DNA of 64,000 bases, from the sequence record PP464953.1. One strand, 5' to 3'. This stretch comes from Escherichia phage ECP2309. A program made the translations under genes and the position numbers. The notes beneath the pieces are model-generated. The model worked only from the letters and a program-made list of their open reading frames with translations. It was not told the origin of the DNA and ran no database searches. This document shows, one piece after another, positions 15,070 through 41,731 of this stretch. Numbering within the stretch: position 1 is the stretch's first letter; each line of letters begins with the position of its first letter.

Positions 15070-15609
15070 TCAACACCCTTTGTACTCCACCACGATAATA
15101 TCTATATCAAAAGTGGCAAGGTTAATAATGTCCTCTACATGTTCCCACTTCAAACCGCCTATGCCGCACCCGATCTTAGGGATGTAGAATGGTAAAATCG
15201 ACCCCTCAAATACTTCATTGACTCGCTCAAATCCTTTCAGTATTGAGAAATATTCAGCATTAGGTCCTGGATAGAACTGAGTATACAGATTTATTCCGTA
15301 GACAATACCTCTCGGAGATAAGTGCTCCCAACGGGAGAACGCGCCCAGTTTACTTAGGCAACCGTGCATAGTCATTTTATCAGCTTCCAATGCTTGAGGG
15401 AATTCACGAGCAATCTGCTTTGCTACACCCTTCCCCATTGTGTGGAAGCAGTTACAACCGTGGATCAGGTGACCAGCACCGCTCTTAAAAAGGGAGATTA
15501 AATCTCCCTCTACAGTATCAATAATCACGATATTCCAGCTCCTCTTCCACAATTTCAAAAAACTCAGTCCAGCACTGCGGCATATTGGAGTTACCGAAGT
15601 GGCTTTCAT
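15070..15609 (-). CDS. macro-domain (ADP-ribose-binding/processing) protein
   Basis: GDLIS...HLIHGCNCFHTMGKGVAKQI parallels the macro-domain GDIT...VNAAN..GGGV block; C-terminal IPKIGCGIGGL parallels the phosphate-binding loop; start uncertain (92-nt overlap if ATG at 15609; a GTG at about 15528 is the alternative). Confidence 0.55.
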   Translation of the reverse strand: MKATSVTPICRSAGLSFLKLWKRSWNIVIIDTVEGDLISLFKSGAGHLIHGCNCFHTMGKGVAKQIAREFPQALEADKMTMHGCLSKLGAFSRWEHLSPRGIVYGINLYTQFYPGPNAEYFSILKGFERVNEVFEGSILPFYIPKIGCGIGGLKWEHVEDIINLATFDIDIIVVEYKGC

Positions 15610-24047: not shown

Positions 24048-26126
24048 TTAAAAAGGTGTTTCGTCGTCTTCAAAACCAGGAACGTGGTTAGAGGACGGAT
24101 CATCATACTGAAGATCTTCCTGTGTGTCAACAGGGTTAACAGCAGGAGTTATAACCTTATCAGCCACAACCTTGCCCACAGGTGTTTCTACAACTGCATG
24201 CTCCTGATCCTCAAACATAGCTTGAGGTCTCCAAACAACCTCTCCACCTTCCCCGTCTGTAAACATCTGCATCTCTTTATCCCAATACCAATTGCTGGCA
24301 TCGTGGAACTTGCCTGTGTGGGGATCCATAACTAGGGTGTCCGCAATACCTAAGGTTTTTGCTGGGCGGTTTTTAAGACCTACCAGCCGGACACGTCCAC
24401 GGGAACGATCCACCATCTCCTCTGCCTCTACCCCGACAACCACCCAGCTAAGTTGCTCCAATCCGGCACTACCGCGAAGGTTCTCTTTTCGCACAGGGTA
24501 CCAGAAAGGTAACGGATTTCCATCCTTATCCTTCGGAGGTACAATCTCTGTGCGCTTCAGGTGAGCAATCACCAAGATAAACACATTAAACTGCTTACAG
24601 AACGCGGCTAGTTGAGTCATAGCCATGTCAAGCTCTTTACGCTCATCCTTAACATTAAGCCCTGAAATCACCATAGACAAGTGATCCAGCACAATGTAAC
24701 GGCAGTGATACAGGCACACCATTTGTTTAAGCTTAGTGATCAGCTCATCTACAGGGATGGAGCCGAAATGCTTGAACACTTTGATTTTTCCGGCCTTGGC
24801 CCAAGATTGATGAATCTCAGCGTGCTCCTGATCGGTCAGGAACTGACTGGGGTCTTCAACAAACTCTTTAACATCAAACCCCAGCTGGTTAGCGTACAGA
24901 GAGTTGATTGCTTCCTCAGGATCCTCTTCAAGGTGAATCAGGCACAGGCGATCATCCTCTTCATAATCATCAGCTTTAGGGCATGTTGGGTCCATCAAGT
25001 ATCTTGCAATGCAATGTTCCAGCTTCTTGGCTACAGTTGTTTTACCACCGCCAGACGGGCCTGTCAGCATCATCAAGGTGCCTTTGTGGAGTCCTTTCAG
25101 CATCTTCTGCAGTTTAGGGAACTCTGCACTAATATCCACGCCATTGGAAGTCTTCTTACGAAGAGATTCAATGGAGAAGTCTTCTAAATCAGATACAGCA
25201 TCAGGCACATATTTGACTGGGTGACGGAACATGTTGACAATATCTTCCAGCTTTTTAGCCTTCAGCATGTCACGAATATCTTTTACACCATCAGGGTCGT
25301 TTACCTCACCTGGGTATTCCACGTGGTAAACGTTGTCAGCCATCAAAAATGCTGCGATATTATGCGTAGCTTCAACACCTTTGATAACGTGTTTTTGCTT
25401 CTCTACCTCGTTAGCTGCATCGTTGTCCATTGCAAGGACTACTGTTCCGTAGCTACGGATAAATTTCTCATTGTTCGCAAAAGTGTCTACGGCGTTTGCA
25501 CACCCGCAGTTAATTCCGACAAAAGGCAGGCATGGTTTTCCTGCCAGATCACCGCCGTTGATAACTGCATCAATCCCATCCTGGACTTCTTTAGCCCACT
25601 GCTTCACCTTCGCTGGGGCTTTAGCATTGGTGAGAATACCTTTTACTTGTACCTGATATGCAGCCTGCCACGCTGCAATAACATCTCCTTCCCCCTCACA
25701 AACGTTAATCTGCTTGCGGTTGTTGGAGGATGCACACAGCTTTTGACCAAACATCTGGGAGTTGGCCTTTACTATGCCGACAACCGAGAAATGGCCCCTT
25801 TGCTCTTTAGGGATTGTCCAGTCACGCTTTTTAAAGCCAGATAGATTACCGTAGCGGTCATAATACGGAAAGTAGGTGGCAGTAACAGTTACGCCATCCT
25901 CTTGGGATAGCGATGATCGTACACCAAAATATTGTGCAGCCATCAGTCCAATATTTTGTTGTGGAACAGGGACAATTTTAGTATTTTCTAAAACAGTCTC
26001 TACAGTTTCAACTTCTTTTTCATCACGATAGTCTCGTTTCACACTTCCCCCACTTTTATACTTAGTTGCTTTCGGGTTTGGCTCACCGAAACGGTTGTAT
26101 GCAGATGCCATGAATTTACTGCCCAT
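24048..26126 (-). CDS. DNA primase (TOPRIM) fused to DnaB-like replicative helicase
   Basis: 692 aa; TOPRIM-like CEGEGD and MDNDAANE; Walker A GPSGGGKTT; Walker B-like VLDHL. Confidence 0.8.
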   Translation of the reverse strand: MGSKFMASAYNRFGEPNPKATKYKSGGSVKRDYRDEKEVETVETVLENTKIVPVPQQNIGLMAAQYFGVRSSLSQEDGVTVTATYFPYYDRYGNLSGFKKRDWTIPKEQRGHFSVVGIVKANSQMFGQKLCASSNNRKQINVCEGEGDVIAAWQAAYQVQVKGILTNAKAPAKVKQWAKEVQDGIDAVINGGDLAGKPCLPFVGINCGCANAVDTFANNEKFIRSYGTVVLAMDNDAANEVEKQKHVIKGVEATHNIAAFLMADNVYHVEYPGEVNDPDGVKDIRDMLKAKKLEDIVNMFRHPVKYVPDAVSDLEDFSIESLRKKTSNGVDISAEFPKLQKMLKGLHKGTLMMLTGPSGGGKTTVAKKLEHCIARYLMDPTCPKADDYEEDDRLCLIHLEEDPEEAINSLYANQLGFDVKEFVEDPSQFLTDQEHAEIHQSWAKAGKIKVFKHFGSIPVDELITKLKQMVCLYHCRYIVLDHLSMVISGLNVKDERKELDMAMTQLAAFCKQFNVFILVIAHLKRTEIVPPKDKDGNPLPFWYPVRKENLRGSAGLEQLSWVVVGVEAEEMVDRSRGRVRLVGLKNRPAKTLGIADTLVMDPHTGKFHDASNWYWDKEMQMFTDGEGGEVVWRPQAMFEDQEHAVVETPVGKVVADKVITPAVNPVDTQEDLQYDDPSSNHVPGFEDDETPF

Positions 26127-26880
26127 TAATTCTTCTCCTTACTGCAGGCTCGTTTGCTAAGAATACAGCTCTTGCCCAGCCACGTGGTGTAAGGCTTCGA
26201 ATCATCTTCGTCCTTGCACTCTTTCCACCTAGCTTAGCGTGTTGCATGGAATAACCACTAACCACATCAACTATTTGCGGGACAGGTTTTGTGGCGGGGA
26301 TTATAAATCCATTGCCTATCCAACCGCAAGTTATTTTTGGGTAGGCATCACGTGGAGCTATAAATTCAGGAAACCATGGGTTTACATCATCCTCTGGTAG
26401 ATACCCACCATAATCCGAAGGATGAAAACGGTAATCAGGTTTTCGCCACAGTGTTGACATAACTCCTACAGGGTTCTCTACATGCCACGGGCAATCGTAA
26501 ATCTCTCCCAACTCTTCTGCAACCCGAGCATCTTTCACAGCATCAATTTGGATCAGAGGATCCTTAGCCAGCTTTTTCTTAAAGTGTGCAGCTCCGGATA
26601 CTGCTAAATGCGTGCACGGAGGAAATGCAAGAATAAAGTCTGGAGCTGGGTACATGCAAAAAGTTTCTTGAGGGAACCACGGGTCAATCCAATAATCCAC
26701 GTAGTGAATGTTGGAATGATCGGTTATCACCTCTGCATAACTGCCATGGTCAGCACCTTCTGCGTTAAAGCACAGGCACAGATATCCAGCTTTTGCCCAG
26801 TCAATAACTGCACCACCAGACCCGTCAAATAGACTCCACACAACACCTTTGTGGTAGTGTTCTTTGTAGATAAATTTCAA
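26116..26880 (-). CDS. DNA (cytosine-5)-methyltransferase-like protein
   Basis: motif I-like FDGSGG, motif IV-like FPPC (catalytic Cys), motif VI-like ENPVG; track start GTG at 26910 lies inside the terminator hairpin, so I prefer TTG at 26880 after SD AGGAGG. Confidence 0.55.
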   Translation of the reverse strand: MKFIYKEHYHKGVVWSLFDGSGGAVIDWAKAGYLCLCFNAEGADHGSYAEVITDHSNIHYVDYWIDPWFPQETFCMYPAPDFILAFPPCTHLAVSGAAHFKKKLAKDPLIQIDAVKDARVAEELGEIYDCPWHVENPVGVMSTLWRKPDYRFHPSDYGGYLPEDDVNPWFPEFIAPRDAYPKITCGWIGNGFIIPATKPVPQIVDVVSGYSMQHAKLGGKSARTKMIRSLTPRGWARAVFLANEPAVRRRINGQ

Positions 26881-26892
26881 TTTGCTGCCTCC

Positions 26893-26926
26893 TAATGCAA
26901 AAAGCCCCACCCTTTCGGGCAGGGCC
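26893..26926 (-). terminator. terminator-like hairpin
   Basis: GCCCCACCC-TTTC-GGGCAGGGC, T-run on minus strand, then SD AGGAGG. Confidence 0.45.
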
Positions 26927-26931
26927 TAGTG

Positions 26932-27414
26932 TTAAACCCGGATACCTATTGTATACTCGGTGGATACCAATGTCAAATCTAAATTTAAAATTTCTTGCAT
27001 CTCATAGTATGCATCCAGAGTGAGATACATTTCCCCATCCTCTTCTACATACTTGTCGAGATGTTTGAGGCACTTTGGATAACTATCAAGGGCAGCTTTT
27101 AAGCACTCAAACTCCGTGCTGTTGATGAATCCTTCCATCTTGGCTACCCGTTCTGGAGTAACAATAGCACTGTAGTGAGATTTAGCTTCCTGAATGCAAT
27201 GGGTCCAAGCATCAACTTTCTCTTCAAAAAGCCCGAAGAATTTCTTTTTGGTAAGTTTCAGATTTTTTAAGTGCTTAAGCACTCGGTTGCCGATTACAGC
27301 CACATCACGAAACTTAAAGATAACTTTGTCGATATCCTCGCGGCCTATTTTCACAAAGCAGGCCTTGCACATCTCGGGAGCAGCGTAGCCTACCTTCCAC
27401 ATAAAATCTGACAT
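26932..27414 (-). CDS. hypothetical protein
   Basis: track ORF 160 aa. Confidence 0.55.
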   Translation of the reverse strand: MSDFMWKVGYAAPEMCKACFVKIGREDIDKVIFKFRDVAVIGNRVLKHLKNLKLTKKKFFGLFEEKVDAWTHCIQEAKSHYSAIVTPERVAKMEGFINSTEFECLKAALDSYPKCLKHLDKYVEEDGEMYLTLDAYYEMQEILNLDLTLVSTEYTIGIRV

Positions 27415-27426
27415 AACACTCCCTCC

Positions 27427-27825
27427 TTATTCTTGAAAAGCAACGATATCGTATGAGCTTGCAGACGAGCCGGGTGAAGAGTGGCTCCAGTCTAGATCAT
27501 CAGAATAGTCAGCATACTGTGCACCACTCCGCAGTTTATATTTTACCCACTTACCTGGTGCAGGGTTTTCACCACCTTCCCATACTTCCCAACCTTCTGG
27601 CAATCCGTCGTCCTGAGAGTTGTCGTCCACCTCACTAATAATCTTAGGGTTTGGAACCAAGATCCATGCAGGCTCTTCCTTCTTAGCAAGTGTCCACACA
27701 ATGTATGTGTCTGAGCAGGAGCATGTCAGTAAAGTATACCCACTGTTCAGAGCTTCTGCAAGCTCTTTTTCAGCATCTTCTAATTTGGTTAGGTGGTATT
27801 GGATAATCTTCACATCTGTAATCAT
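27427..27825 (-). CDS. hypothetical protein
   Basis: track ORF 132 aa. Confidence 0.55.
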   Translation of the reverse strand: MITDVKIIQYHLTKLEDAEKELAEALNSGYTLLTCSCSDTYIVWTLAKKEEPAWILVPNPKIISEVDDNSQDDGLPEGWEVWEGGENPAPGKWVKYKLRSGAQYADYSDDLDWSHSSPGSSASSYDIVAFQE

Positions 27826-28130
27826 CAGAAACCTCCTGTCTCTTCAGCAAATGCAGCCGCTGTTGTTGCTGCATCCAGATAGGACTCTAGTTCACGTGCT
27901 GCCCGTTTGTAAATCGAGTGGCGCATATCGTTCGGCAGTTGGTGAAAATCCACCTCTTCTCCGTTGTGGTAAACATGCACATCAGTAATCTGTCTAAATC
28001 CATAATAATCAACATCAGAATCACGGCACTCTGGATCTGGCAACTGGACAACTGCCTGAGCCTCTACAGTGAGCATATTGTCAAGTTCGAAATCGATTTC
28101 AAAAGTATATGGTTTATAACGCTTCATCAT
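27825..28130 (-). CDS. hypothetical protein
   Basis: track ORF 101 aa. Confidence 0.55.
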   Translation of the reverse strand: MMKRYKPYTFEIDFELDNMLTVEAQAVVQLPDPECRDSDVDYYGFRQITDVHVYHNGEEVDFHQLPNDMRHSIYKRAARELESYLDAATTAAAFAEETGGF

Positions 28131-28186
28131 TCGGTGTTCTCCTTGTCTTGTGTGAAGAGTAGACCTCTCCTTCGATATTTTAAATA

Positions 28187-29530
28187 TTACTCTAAATCTT
28201 CTTCTGAGTCAAGCCTATCTTTCACAACTAAGTTCTGGGCAAGTTTGTAATAACGAAAGCCCCCACCACCTTGCCAGTTTACAGATTTAGAAATACCACT
28301 TTGATCTTCACCATCGATCACTTTTTGCAAGCGTGGAATAATATGGGTATGACAATGATCTCCTAGCTCAACCGAGATCCAACGTCTTTTCATCTTGTGA
28401 GCTACAGCAGCAGTAGTTCCCGAACCGCCGAATGAATCCAATACTAAATCTCCTTCTCGCGTACACATTTCTAAAATCCGCTTCAAAAGCGCTTCAGGTT
28501 TTTTTCCATTTTTGAAACTAACGCCCCCTTCATTTGCTATTCCATTCCAACTAATGTCAGTCCAAACATCAGTTATTAGTTCAGCAGGCTGCATCTCACC
28601 GTCAATTTCCAAAAGCCTATTGGAATAAAAGACCATTTGCCTACCATTTGCGATATAAAAGCCTTCGACATCCTCATTTGGATGTACATAAACCTTATCC
28701 CTATCTTTCTTTGACTTCTCGATAGTTTCTTTTCTCTTTATTTTGGCACCACCGCCAATTGCAACGGATTGAAATACACGTTCTGCATTATCAATTGCAA
28801 ATTGTGCTAATTCATAATCAAATGTATCAGGCAGTTTTTTCTTGGCTTCTTTTGTATCTTTATAGCCATTGGCCTTTGCAAACGCATCGGCAATACCGCA
28901 CCACGTCCAACTTTTATAATGGTCATCTGGGTTTAATAGATATTTGTTATATCCCGTATCATACTCTTTAGGTATATAGATTTTGTTAAGTGGTTTCTTG
29001 GTACGATCTTTTGCATATACAAGCAAAAAGTTTGCTGTGGAGAAAACTGTAGTTCCTGTTGCTTTAAAGCCTGAAGGGCAATTTGTAGTCATCGATATGG
29101 TATTTAACTGATTTGCACGACCAAAAATCTCGTCCATCAAGACTTTTAAATAAGCCATTTCGCAGTCATCTAAGTGAACGAATATCACTCCATCATCGCT
29201 TAGCAGATTACGAATTATTTCTAATCTGTCCCGCATTAAGCCCAGCCAAATGGAGTGCTCCAGGCTATCATCGTAGTGCTCAAAATCCCTTCCGGTATTG
29301 AATGGCGGGTCTATGTAAACACACTTCACTTTGCCTGCATACTCTTGCTCTAGTGCCTTCAATGCCAGTAAGTTATCTCCAAAAATCAGTTTATTATCAA
29401 AAATATCGTTTTCGGTCACCTTTTTACTGGCGTGATAAGACTTGCTCGAATCTTCTAACAAAATGTGAGGCTCTAGCTTTTTGCGCTCGTTCTTACCTAT
29501 CCAGGTAAGTTCTAATTTGGTTTTACTCAT
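28187..29530 (-). CDS. DNA N6-adenine/N4-cytosine methyltransferase (beta class, Mod-like)
   Basis: 447 aa; catalytic motif IV DPPF precedes AdoMet motif I FGGSGTT, the beta-class order. Confidence 0.85.
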   Translation of the reverse strand: MSKTKLELTWIGKNERKKLEPHILLEDSSKSYHASKKVTENDIFDNKLIFGDNLLALKALEQEYAGKVKCVYIDPPFNTGRDFEHYDDSLEHSIWLGLMRDRLEIIRNLLSDDGVIFVHLDDCEMAYLKVLMDEIFGRANQLNTISMTTNCPSGFKATGTTVFSTANFLLVYAKDRTKKPLNKIYIPKEYDTGYNKYLLNPDDHYKSWTWCGIADAFAKANGYKDTKEAKKKLPDTFDYELAQFAIDNAERVFQSVAIGGGAKIKRKETIEKSKKDRDKVYVHPNEDVEGFYIANGRQMVFYSNRLLEIDGEMQPAELITDVWTDISWNGIANEGGVSFKNGKKPEALLKRILEMCTREGDLVLDSFGGSGTTAAVAHKMKRRWISVELGDHCHTHIIPRLQKVIDGEDQSGISKSVNWQGGGGFRYYKLAQNLVVKDRLDSEEDLE

Positions 29531-29585
29531 CGTTTGGTGCTCTCCTTAATTTTTGTGGGGAGGAGTGCCTCCCCTTTATACTCAC

Positions 29586-29614
29586 ATCTTACTACTCAAG
29601 GTCTTCAGAGTCAA
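29586..29614 (-). promoter_or_regulatory. sigma70-like promoter TTGACT-N17-TAAGAT for the methyltransferase gene
   Basis: followed by hairpin GGGGAGG-AGTG-CCTCCCC (29557-29574) and SD AAGGAGA. Confidence 0.55.
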
Positions 29615-29933
29615 GCTCAAAAAGAATCAAACTGTGCATGCCTGCAGAGAGATCAACACACCCTGCAACAATAAGGGTTTGATAGTAAGGTTCAGCACCC
29701 TCAATATCTTCGTTAAAATCCACAACAAGGTAGTCACCTTTGTTAAAGGTGTATTTGTCCGATGTAAACGCAAAACCTGCCCAGTCACCTACTGCAGGAT
29801 CTTTATCAGTCACCTTTGTTAGCAGTAGATCTTTTTCACGAGATCTTTTAGTAAAATCGTGAATCACAACATCCTTCTCTTCAGGAGTCGGATTGCCACA
29901 CACGTAGTTAACGATATTTCTCCACAAACTCAT
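29592..29933 (-). CDS. hypothetical protein
   Basis: track ORF 113 aa. Confidence 0.55.
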   Translation of the reverse strand: MSLWRNIVNYVCGNPTPEEKDVVIHDFTKRSREKDLLLTKVTDKDPAVGDWAGFAFTSDKYTFNKGDYLVVDFNEDIEGAEPYYQTLIVAGCVDLSAGMHSLILFELDSEDLE

Positions 29934-31300
29934 ACGTCCCCCTTTTCTGCTCTAGTTTCAAAATCTTTCCTGACTTTCTCGTCTAAGCCAGGAAAAGTTG
30001 TATTATAAAACTCTACGACTCTCGGGTCAACAATAATATCCACCTCTCTTAATGGACGCAACAAGTTTATTCCTTGTATCGTCTTAACCCGACTCAAGGC
30101 AACATACGTCATTCCGGGAGAGAAAGCTCCGTTCTTTCCGAGGTCCAGGTTGTAACAATCTAGCGTAAGTCCTTGACTTTTATGTGATGTTACTGCGTAC
30201 CCTGATTTCAAAGGGAGTTGCTCATAAGACCCGATCACAACCCTCTCTATGAACTTCTCCATCTTCCTTTCGGCAATATTGTACCTCTGGGAAGGTTTGT
30301 ACTCGTTATTCTCCCACAATCTCGGCTCAATTTCAACCTGTGCCCCGTCTTCCAGCTCAACTACTACAGATTTGGTCTTGAATTTTACCACTGTGGCGCG
30401 TGTCCCGTTGACATAGTACGGAACTTTGTGGGTAGGGTCAACATCGTTTGAGGTTATCATAACCTTCATCCCTATCTTCAGCCTCATTTCCTGCTCCACA
30501 GGCAGTGTGGAAGGGAACTTACCTTTCATTTTACCAATGTAGGTCTTCTCTGGGGCCTTGATGGCATCATAGAAACGTCTGTTCACCTCCTCTGCTTGCT
30601 TATTGGTGGCACAGATGGTCAAGGCATCTGTTGGGACACCACCATGATAGCAACGAGTGTTAAGCTCTGCTACAACCTCTTTTATGCGACGACCTTCACG
30701 AACACAGTTCAACATTGTGGCGAAGCGAACAGATTCCTGACGGAACTGGTCTACTAAGGCTATATTGTGAAGATTAAGATCCTCCCAAGATTTTGTATAG
30801 CAACACAGATCTGTGTGGTAGAAGTTGAAGTAGGCCTCCTTCTCCATAGAAGAGACAACTGGAGGTGCTTGGTAGAAGTCTCCAAACAATAACACCTGAA
30901 TGCCTCCGAAAGGCTTGTCATTTTTCCGAAGAAAGCGGAGTTTTCTATCCATCTCTATGAACTTGTCAGCACGGATCATGGAGATTTCATCGATAATTAG
31001 GATGGTAAATGCCTTGCTTTTCAGAGGCTTTGCTGTTTTTGCCCTTATTGCTGTCCAGTCTGACTCCATGCTCACACCTGCGGCAAGATCGAAAGTTCGG
31101 TGAGCTGTTGCTCCATTAACGTTTAAAGCGGCTACCCCTGTCGGGGCAACCGTTATGCAAGAGTCTCCATACATGGACTGGATTATGTTGATAAGATATG
31201 TCTTCCCTGTTCCACCAGGTCCACTTACGAAGACATTCTCACCGCTCATGATTGCAACAAGGGCAGCATCTGTGCCTACATCGTACTGCCCTTTTTCCAT
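29930..31300 (-). CDS. Dda/Pif1/RecD-like SF1 DNA helicase
   Basis: 456 aa; Walker A GPGGTGKT; ...VTSHKSQGLTLD near the C-terminus. Confidence 0.85.
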   Translation of the reverse strand: MEKGQYDVGTDAALVAIMSGENVFVSGPGGTGKTYLINIIQSMYGDSCITVAPTGVAALNVNGATAHRTFDLAAGVSMESDWTAIRAKTAKPLKSKAFTILIIDEISMIRADKFIEMDRKLRFLRKNDKPFGGIQVLLFGDFYQAPPVVSSMEKEAYFNFYHTDLCCYTKSWEDLNLHNIALVDQFRQESVRFATMLNCVREGRRIKEVVAELNTRCYHGGVPTDALTICATNKQAEEVNRRFYDAIKAPEKTYIGKMKGKFPSTLPVEQEMRLKIGMKVMITSNDVDPTHKVPYYVNGTRATVVKFKTKSVVVELEDGAQVEIEPRLWENNEYKPSQRYNIAERKMEKFIERVVIGSYEQLPLKSGYAVTSHKSQGLTLDCYNLDLGKNGAFSPGMTYVALSRVKTIQGINLLRPLREVDIIVDPRVVEFYNTTFPGLDEKVRKDFETRAEKGDV

Positions 31301-40270: not shown

Positions 40271-41731
40271 ATGGATAGCAGAAGTTCAGAAATCATTGCC
40301 TCACAGAAAGATGATGCCCTGAGAATGTTGCAGGCTGCACGTATGTATCTCCTTGAAAAGCTGCCGTTTTATGGCACACTGCTGTCAGGATTGCAGTTCG
40401 TAGAAAACCACACATGGTGCTCCACCATGGCAACCGACCATAAACGCATCTATTACAGCCCTGAGTTCATTATGGGATTGGCTGATGAACGCAAGGTTAT
40501 TCTTAAGGCTTCTCTAACTGACGAACAGTTTGAGATGGCTGAGGTTTTCTATTCCCTCAAATCTGTGAAAGAGGTGGCTTTTCTTCTGTCACACGAGGTG
40601 GGGCATATTATCTGTGATCACCTGGTCCGTGGTAAAAGCTTCGAGCCGGAACTGTTTAATATTGCTTGTGATCATGTTATCAACACAGGTCTTGTGGTTG
40701 ACTTTAGCAAGCCTCCCTGTGTTTTCTTCCCGAAGGGGAAAAGCACTACGTTCGTGAAAGGTAAGCCTTTTGGTTTCTTAGCCAGCTGCTACTGCGACAT
40801 GAGGTTTCATGGATGGATTGCTGAGAACGTCTATGCGGTTCTTGATAAGCAAAGAGATCAGAATAACGGTAAAAGTAAGAGCGGTAAAGGTGAGAACTCT
40901 CAAGGGGATAAGCGACAAACCGATGATCACATGAGTGGGAACGGTGGCACCAGCGATGATCTTGGAAAGGCTATGGGGTATGATCAGCCACAACCTGTAA
41001 TCAGCCAATCTGATAAAGATCAGGCCATGCAAGACTCTGGTGACATGCTGGAAGCAGCAATGCAAGCTTCCGGAGGTCGTTGCCCCGAGGCGGTGCGTGA
41101 GTTTGTCAAGAACAGAGGTAAGCCTGTAATCAACTATATAGACATCATTAAGCAACGCATGTTGTCTAAACGAAAGGCCGAACTGACCTACAGAAAACCT
41201 GGTCGCCGATCTGGGTCTTTGACCAGCACAATGCGAAAAGTTGGGGCTATAAACAAGAACCAGCACGTTATTGTTCCTGGTCGTAATCCGGAAAACACCA
41301 TAGATATTGTGGTAGCTTTAGACGTTTCTGGCTCGATATCTCAAAGAACTTTAAAGAAAATGTTCAATGAAATCACCGGATTGTGCAATCTGTATAAAGA
41401 GTTTAAGGTTACAATGTTCTGTTGGTCAACTGAAGTCGGAGAGGTTAAAGTATATACTCGCGGCAACATAGACGAAATGATCAACTATGAGGTCCACTCA
41501 ACATGGGGCACAACAGCTGCTTGCGTGTTCGAGTATCTGGATGCCAACATACCAAATGCAAAAGATGTCATCGTCCTGACCGACCTATACTTTGAGCATA
41601 ACTTTGAACAAAAGGCTGTTGACAACAAGTGGAAAAAGTACGATACTTTATGGGTTCTCACCGAAGGGTATAATAAAAATTATATCCCTAGCTTTGGTAA
41701 AACTGTGGAATTAATCGAGTACGCTAAGTAA
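40271..41731 (+). CDS. vWA-domain protein with N-terminal HExxH metallopeptidase-like region (CobT-like partner of the AAA+ ATPase)
   Basis: SHEVGH (HExxH); MIDAS-like VVALDVSGSIS; track TTG start moved to ATG (M8) after SD TGGAG. Confidence 0.7.
   Translation: MDSRSSEIIASQKDDALRMLQAARMYLLEKLPFYGTLLSGLQFVENHTWCSTMATDHKRIYYSPEFIMGLADERKVILKASLTDEQFEMAEVFYSLKSVKEVAFLLSHEVGHIICDHLVRGKSFEPELFNIACDHVINTGLVVDFSKPPCVFFPKGKSTTFVKGKPFGFLASCYCDMRFHGWIAENVYAVLDKQRDQNNGKSKSGKGENSQGDKRQTDDHMSGNGGTSDDLGKAMGYDQPQPVISQSDKDQAMQDSGDMLEAAMQASGGRCPEAVREFVKNRGKPVINYIDIIKQRMLSKRKAELTYRKPGRRSGSLTSTMRKVGAINKNQHVIVPGRNPENTIDIVVALDVSGSISQRTLKKMFNEITGLCNLYKEFKVTMFCWSTEVGEVKVYTRGNIDEMINYEVHSTWGTTAACVFEYLDANIPNAKDVIVLTDLYFEHNFEQKAVDNKWKKYDTLWVLTEGYNKNYIPSFGKTVELIEYAK

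Follow-up and report, generated by a model that had tools for sequence, protein, structure and literature searches.

Why does a phage carry, among its replication genes, two DNA methyltransferase genes of different classes and no nuclease to accompany either? The question is raised by Escherichia phage ECP2309, of which we analysed a stretch of 64,000 nt (PP464953.1), here called the window, whose positions serve as coordinates throughout. An initial annotation had placed a C5-cytosine-like enzyme and a beta-class amino-methyltransferase in the replication module of this DNA and had proposed layered self-protection against host restriction. Both genes are present, one encoding 254 amino acids (aa) with a C5-like fold and the other 447 aa with a match to PF01555, and they bear all the motifs on which they had been recognized. 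We find it somewhat probable that the phage modifies its own replicating DNA with a host-derived Mod cassette and a core C5-like enzyme, without thereby gaining general protection against restriction.

Neither gene is new to this group of phages. The rV5 genome paper (2013) lists in its Table S3 gene 231 as a 'Dcm methylase' of 254 aa, gene 235 as a 'methyltransferase (adenine specific)' of 441 aa with a bacterial MOD as best match, and gene 100 as a third methyltransferase (PMC3606486), and the BASEL phage collection (2021) names the pair 'Dcm-like C5 cytosine methyltransferase' and 'putative N6 adenine methyltransferase' (PMC8594841). The feature is thus real and ordinary in kind, since both genes were already annotated. 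What we add is that the accessory methylase is a truncated version of one particular E. coli type III Mod, and that the 'Dcm-like' label of the core gene derives solely from its fold, the protein belonging to a huge family outside current profile libraries.

Results

A truncated type III Mod among the replication genes

The beta-class gene (28187..29530, minus strand) encodes a protein that matches PF01555 (N6_N4_Mtase) with 150.3 bits against a cut-off of 26.7 (E 1e-43) and the PADLOC profile MTase_III (PDLC03636) with E 4e-203 over positions 2-445 of 575. The order of its parts is that of a beta-class enzyme: the catalytic motif IV (DPPF, aa 74-77, 29300..29311, minus strand), which is typical of N6-adenine enzymes, precedes the S-adenosylmethionine (AdoMet)-binding motif I (FGGSGTT, aa 367-373, 28412..28432, minus strand; located by motif search and by comparison with Mods in the PDB), and the target-recognition region lies between the two. 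DPPF rather than SPPF points to adenine as the predicted target base. The closest solved relatives are type III Mods, namely 6k0w (E 4e-29) and 4zcf (E 3e-23).

A far closer relative exists in E. coli, a 567-aa protein (P0271) that matches 99% of the length of the phage protein at 95% identity, extends some 130 residues beyond its end and covers positions 2-572 of the 575 in PDLC03636; full-length homologs of about 570-600 aa are found in many bacteria at 60-77% identity. The phage protein does not have this full-length Mod architecture, as profile positions 446-575, the C-terminal ~130 residues, are missing, and it ends just past the motif GGGGFRYYKLA, which corresponds in the alignment to the point where the methyltransferase domain of EcoP15I Mod ends. 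At the nucleotide level, the stretch homologous to the E. coli chromosomal type III mod gene (28201..29543, minus strand; 94.0% identity over 1,344 nt) begins 13 nt ahead of the ATG, ends 14 nt short of the phage stop codon and corresponds to the first 1,344 nt of the E. coli gene. To judge by its sequence, the 447-aa gene is therefore a captured, truncated host Mod. The 101-aa open reading frame (ORF) that follows it had seemed a possible detached Mod C-terminus (447 + 19 + 101 = 567 aa), but BLASTP showed no similarity to the full-length homologs, and we rejected this candidate because the 567-aa protein is a genuine full-length E. coli Mod.

Of 5,426 complete E. coli genomes, 24-25 contain the cognate mod gene, which is chromosomal in all of them and lies directly upstream of a 912-aa res gene (PADLOC REase_III, E 8.8e-191; weak match to EcoP15I Res). 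In E. coli GCA_026236215.1 (L008 2106-12464) the mod-res pair is part of a compact defence island together with AbiD, AbiU/AIPR and a DrmD-like SNF2 helicase. An AlpA-type regulator is located upstream of the island and IS66 transposase genes downstream; the arrangement suggests a mobile island. No res gene adjoins the phage copy, whose neighbours are three small ORFs and a helicase that Pfam assigns to the superfamily 1 (SF1) PIF1-like enzymes and not to ResIII, and Pfam profiles found no ResIII protein in the flanks of the 447-aa gene.

Comparison of 116 Vequintavirus records showed that the Mod-like gene is an accessory cassette, retained in 87 of them and absent from 29, in which the junction is intact. 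The insertion point is exactly the ATG of the 101-aa gene. In the genomes without the cassette, the same leader, consisting of a weak promoter-like site, the GGGGAGGCACTCCTCCCC hairpin and a ribosome-binding site, stands directly before the 101-aa ATG, and in the window the 3′ end of the cassette is a 56-nt spacer (28131..28186, minus strand) that supplies a new ribosome-binding site, AAGGAG, to the displaced gene. The initial annotation had credited the 447-aa gene with a promoter and a hairpin of its own. Both elements exist, but they are features of the phage backbone, as they are found nearly unchanged before the 101-aa gene in genomes lacking the methyltransferase. The promoter-like site (TTGACT-17-TAAGAT, 9/12; 29586..29614, minus strand) lies in the end of the 113-aa gene and is not in the stringent rV5 promoter list (PMC3606486); such sites are not enriched in the region (12 versus 9.3 ± 2.9 in shuffles). 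The 7-bp, G+C-rich hairpin (29557..29574, minus strand; -14 kcal/mol), annotated as a terminator in phage Alma, is not followed by a U-run on the coding strand.

Between intact phage alleles the 447-aa gene has a ratio of nonsynonymous to synonymous substitutions (dN/dS) of 0.04-0.09 with dS of up to 0.31, and such strong purifying selection argues for a working protein. Inactivated copies occur as well, namely a frameshifted one in phage EmilHeitz (L005 3103-4491) and shortened proteins in other contigs (P0279, P0281, P0304). The G+C content falls to 0.399 in the 2-kb bin 28001-30000, the lowest of the surrounding region, with neighbouring bins at 0.44-0.47, which is consistent with a foreign origin of the cassette.

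A core C5-like gene with a minimal protein

The C5-like gene (26116..26880, minus strand) begins with a TTG codon 7 nt downstream of the ribosome-binding site AGGAGG. This start at 26880 is also the one annotated in rV5, BASEL and ECP2303, and a mechanically chosen GTG start at 26910 was discarded since it falls inside a terminator hairpin. The protein contains motif I as FDGSGG (F-x-G-x-G-G, aa 18-23, 26812..26829), the cofactor-binding loop, which aligns to SLFSGAGG of M.HaeIII and FAGGGG of CmoX; motif IV as FPPC (aa 86-89, 26614..26625), with C89 as the candidate catalytic residue, aligned to SPPC of CmoX; and ENPVG (aa 135-139, 26464..26478) as a variant of motif VI, canonically E-N-V (all on the minus strand). 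Among 70 family representatives the residues P87 (66), C89 (67), E135 (68), N136 (67) and P137 (all 70) are conserved, and the first Gly of motif I varies across the wider family. An hhalign comparison of the family with CmoX aligned motif I through motif IV.

The AlphaFold2 model of the protein has a predicted local distance difference test (pLDDT) score of 89, and the top 50 PDB matches that Foldseek returned for it are all C5 methyltransferases, mainly the catalytic domains of DNMT3A, 3B and 3C but also the prophage enzyme 3g7u. The DNMT3 catalytic domains have the smallest recognition domains, and in the phage protein only ~40 residues are left for a target-recognition domain. The modelled fold and the catalytic core thus support the term 'C5-like'; 'Dcm-like' implies a specificity that nothing in the evidence bears out. 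The protein matches phrog_757 ('DNA methyltransferase') and belongs to a family of 210-260 aa proteins that numbers 4,182 matches when clustered at 90% and forms 1,017 clusters at 50%; the family occurs in 1,507 phage records, spread over Drexlerviridae-, Dhillonvirus-, Webervirus- and T4-like genomes. The protein is set apart by the conserved motifs YGGYLP, RDAY-K-TC-W and IRS-TPRGFA. By eye, the C-terminal IRSLTPRGWARAV resembles motif IX (R-x-L-T-P-R-E-x-A-R), but sub-profile searches placed IRSLTPRGWARAV on neither motif IX nor motif X, and an assignment of the conserved IRS-TPRGFA to motif IX/X, with R228 corresponding to R350 of CmoX, was abandoned when neither hhalign nor sub-profile hidden Markov models gave a usable alignment. 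In the literature we found no report of 5-methylcytosine (m5C) activity for the family and no 5mC methylome of a Vequintavirus.

The C5-like gene is a core gene of the genus. It is present at ≥90% protein identity in 116 Vequintavirus records, which is essentially all of them, and its dN/dS of 0.03-0.05 indicates strong purifying selection. Its last 11 nt (26116-26126) overlap the start of the primase/helicase gene, suggesting that the two may be translationally coupled.

Upstream of the gene lie a sigma-70-type promoter (TTGACA-17-TACAAT, 11/12; 26948..26976, minus strand), inside the end of the 160-aa gene, and an intrinsic terminator, a hairpin with a T-run (26902..26927, minus strand; -22 kcal/mol), between the 160-aa gene and the C5-like gene; a 65-nt leader containing the terminator folds with -25 kcal/mol. 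We found both independently of the rV5 list, where Table S4 records them directly upstream of the C5-like gene as P231, the promoter of the 'Dcm methylase', and t232 (-22.3 kcal/mol) (PMC3606486). The promoter is situated ~15 nt upstream of the terminator, so that a transcript would meet the terminator within ~40 nt, ahead of the C5-like gene. The arrangement could serve attenuation, the hairpin may stabilize the 5′ end, or the promoter may not be a real one. The rV5 paper also describes t213, a terminator nearly identical to t232 located elsewhere in that genome (PMC3606486); in the window, this type of terminator sequence occurs as a single copy.

Further methyltransferases and adenine methylation in the genus

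The count of two methyltransferases holds for the window, but the genus Vequintavirus possesses four methyltransferase-like genes. Those outside the window are a core 272-aa NPPF enzyme (gp096-like; rV5 77289-78107, L003 1790-2608) and a 177-aa NPPY enzyme (WalterGehring 108091-108624, L019 31192-31725). A 2025 study reported that an 'N6 adenine methyltransferase' of phage Bas51 methylates GATC and triggers two retrons, Asa1 and Squ1 (PMC12548924), so that phage methylation also carries a cost, as the GATC-specific enzyme sets off retron defence. That enzyme is neither of the two genes considered here, because the reported residues D69, D79 and T83 fit only bas51_0176 (177 aa, NPPY), which is absent from the window.

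The source data of that study list the N6-methyladenine (6mA) sites in the virion DNA of wild-type Bas51, a close relative of the phage studied here (1,405 in GATC, 509 in GTAC and 576 others) and of the T83P mutant (35, 511 and 349, respectively) (PMC12548924). We estimate ~272 GTAC sites with ~543 adenines for Bas51. A phage enzyme other than bas51_0176 thus methylates practically every GTAC on both strands, since 509 of the ~543 adenines are modified and the signal survives T83P. Bas51 carries a Mod-like gene 95.7% identical to the copy in the window, and either the core NPPF enzyme (gp096-like) or the enzyme derived from Mod would be a candidate for the GTAC and 'other' methylation. An asymmetric 5-bp Mod site is expected ~275 times in 140 kb and could lie within the 'other' class.

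Genomic setting

By nucleotide identity the source phage is an rV5-like Vequintavirus: over the region 26000-29700 it agrees fully (100%) with Escherichia phage ECP2303 and is 92-98% identical to >100 rV5-like phages of this genus. About 16-20 records labelled 'Campylobacter phage' (MG0656xx, host C. jejuni) also share 93-98% identity with E. coli rV5-like phages across the region and are probably mislabelled or contaminant E. coli phages.

The replication setting claimed for the pair was borne out, as was the distance of 1.3 kb, which measures 1,306 bp. Every gene in the stretch around the two genes lies on the minus strand, and in the order of transcription rIIA, rIIB, the PIF1/Dda-like helicase, the 113-aa ORF and the 447-aa methyltransferase gene are followed by ORFs of 101, 132 and 160 aa, the 254-aa gene, the primase/helicase and the DNA polymerase. 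The three small genes between the methyltransferases (26932..28130, minus strand) were classified as a nuclease by no profile tested, and a Pfam search of all three found no domain. One candidate partner nuclease, annotated as 'HNH endonuclease' and located 10.7 kb away (40271-41731, plus strand), was rejected: it matches DUF2201_N, a putative metallopeptidase domain, and the von Willebrand factor A (VWA)-like DUF2201, and no HNH family. Its product is a DUF2201 metallopeptidase/VWA protein, the 'HNH endonuclease' label comes from the deposited ECP2303 record, and BASEL names the ortholog 'putative metallopeptidase' (PMC8594841). The pair is thus without a nearby endonuclease gene, as had been stated.

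Some relatives have homing-endonuclease genes beside or inside their replication genes (EmilHeitz, L005 417-1088; WalterGehring, L001 3189-3695 and 6256-6990), one between the C5-like gene and the primase/helicase and others in or beside the DNA polymerase gene; at those positions the window contains none. One of the small early genes (about 15070-15528, minus strand) is called a 'macro domain protein' in the deposited annotation.

Discussion

How could two such enzymes act together in one phage? Both would be expressed from the transcription unit of the replication genes. The cassette consists of the catalytic core and the target-recognition region of an E. coli type III Mod, cut just after the methyltransferase domain, and by its insertion at the start codon of a backbone gene it uses the leader and ribosome-binding site of that gene. 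If the 447-aa enzyme still methylates adenine N6 in the site of the cognate system, progeny DNA would be immune to that Res, and the gene would determine host range with respect to the ~0.5% of E. coli strains that have the system. The 254-aa enzyme would produce 5-methylcytosine in phage DNA through the covalent Cys-C6 mechanism, possibly with relaxed specificity owing to its almost absent target-recognition domain. According to a review, phages acquire protective methylases from host restriction-modification (RM) systems, and for the Mod-derived cassette an anti-restriction reading is well motivated: the identity of 94% in nucleotides and 95% in amino acids to an E. coli Mod beside a res gene suggests an accessory host-range gene that may protect against one specific host system. 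For the C5-like gene an anti-restriction role is plausible but unsupported.

Several observations weigh against this proposal. According to BASEL, the Vequintavirinae are 'exceptionally susceptible' to RM systems, and in its raw plating data 11 of 11 Vequintavirus isolates plate at ~1e-3 to 1e-4 on EcoRI and below detection on EcoRV (PMC8594841), all 11 carrying the C5-like gene. Of the type III systems EcoCFT_II and EcoP1, the former is evaded, in part, only by Bas49 and Bas51 (PMC8594841). Bas52 and Bas54 have an intact Mod-like gene, yet remain below detection on EcoCFT_II; Bas49, whose copy is frameshifted, nevertheless reaches one of the highest efficiencies of plating (EOPs) on it (0.19). 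Of the isolates without the Mod-like gene, Bas56-59, the first two (Bas56 and Bas57) are the most resistant to EcoP1 (EOP 0.12-0.57). The Mod-like gene moreover looks dispensable, a quarter of the genomes having lost it and truncated copies being in circulation. The C-terminal domain that it lacks may, we presume, be needed for dimerization, as in the EcoP15I complex Mod2Res1, in which one protomer reads the site and the other methylates. On the side of the 254-aa protein, no match was obtained in Pfam, NCBIfam or PADLOC, a single one of 70 relatives reaches PF00145 (E 0.007), a PDB search with the family profile brings up generic Rossmann matches but no C5 methyltransferase, and motif VIII (Q-x-R-x-R) and motif X (G-N) are both absent.

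The plating data consequently do not fit the Mod-like gene as the cause of partial EcoCFT_II or EcoP1 resistance, with which it shows no correlation, and the proposal of 'layered' self-protection in its broad form does not hold: neither methyltransferase gene gives general protection against restriction. The part that concerns the beta-class gene gains support from the comparative evidence. The cognate E. coli type III system was no part of the BASEL RM panel, and the 25 genomes with the cognate mod do not include E. coli CFT073. Counts of 15 restriction sites in the window gave observed/expected ratios of 0.72-1.15, which were uninformative as to site avoidance.

The same lack of protection against the BASEL panel can be turned towards a different explanation, by which the methylases serve phage replication, packaging or gene expression instead of anti-restriction, with parallels in the Dam methylation of P1 pac and in CcrM-type control. 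Both genes lie among those for the polymerase, the primase/helicase and the Dda-like helicase, the C5-like gene belongs to the core set of the genus and shares 11 nt with the start of the primase/helicase gene, and the review cites regulatory roles for phage orphan methylases. However, a housekeeping function leaves unexplained why the Mod-like gene is a recent copy of a host restriction gene, this gene is dispensable in 29 of 116 genomes, and no methylation-dependent site or regulator was identified; we regard an explanation of this kind as unlikely, though it deserves to be kept in mind.

A further question concerns the chemistry of the 254-aa protein, which need not be a plain sequence-specific m5C enzyme for DNA: it might use another cofactor (carboxy-S-adenosylmethionine, carboxy-SAM), act on another substrate (single-stranded DNA, RNA or replication intermediates), or be a non-catalytic DNA-binding relic. 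CmoX, a phage DNA cytosine C5-carboxymethyltransferase, demonstrates that the C5 fold can install other adducts (PMC12783734). However, CmoX scores no better than ordinary C5 methyltransferases, the window contains no CmoA or CmoY gene, the correspondence of R228 to R350 of CmoX could not be established, and the catalytic Cys and the motif VI Glu are conserved as in a working C5 enzyme; several databases also name the relatives cytosine methylases, if by annotation only. We therefore consider a departure from ordinary m5C chemistry rather improbable, and a real long shot would be the idea that the whole family consists of minimal enzymes, devoid of motif X and of a recognition domain, that may install another C5 adduct, for instance 5-carboxymethylcytosine from host carboxy-SAM, or modify replicating DNA with little sequence specificity.

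That the 447-aa gene is a decaying passenger, a functionless fragment of a truncated host gene, would agree with the absent C-terminal ~130 residues, the deletion in a quarter of the genomes, the frameshift in EmilHeitz and the shortened copies in other contigs, and the lack of a phenotype in the BASEL assays, but it is a very improbable account of a gene that is kept in 87 records at a dN/dS of 0.04-0.09 with dS of up to 0.3, has all catalytic motifs intact, was truncated at a domain boundary and not inside the fold, and has taken over the backbone ribosome-binding site in frame.

We thus return to self-modification by a captured Mod cassette and a core C5-like enzyme, from which a simple prediction follows for the cassette: carriers should plate on strains with the cognate system, and phages without the gene should not. 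The available BASEL isolates vary at this locus and so permit a test, and the natural presence or absence of the gene (MaxTheCat, L004 3323-4027; the EmilHeitz frameshift) offers ready-made, isogenic-like test material. The matter is of practical interest, as rV5-like phages count among the E. coli phages isolated most often, are included in biocontrol and therapy cocktails, and have a host range limited by restriction.

Comparison with known systems

Among known C5 enzymes, those of PF00145 (M.HhaI, M.HaeIII, DNMT3A/B and the CP-933R enzyme 3G7U) comprise ≥320 aa, whereas the phage protein has 254 aa and stays below every profile threshold. CmoX of Synechococcus phage S-B43 (8YF3) differs in its length of 372 aa, its canonical motifs IX and X with G-R replacing G-N, its SPPC where the phage protein has FPPC, and its position beside CmoA and CmoY. 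The 447-aa protein shares with the type III Mods (EcoP15I Mod 4ZCF, H. pylori Mod 6K0W and the profile PDLC03636) the order of N-terminal region, DPPF, target-recognition region and FGGSGTT, but its gene is without a Res partner and without the C-terminal ~130 residues, and is embedded in a phage replication operon behind a backbone leader. In a wider sense, it resembles the orphan methyltransferases of other phages, described as a 'Trojan horse' (Dam of T4 and P1, the multispecific C5 enzymes of Bacillus phages), in being a methylase without a nuclease and in the presumed pre-methylation of progeny DNA. The orphan phage methylases described so far are mostly type II-like, whereas the 447-aa gene derives from a type III Mod that has been truncated and whose role would be a putatively protective one.

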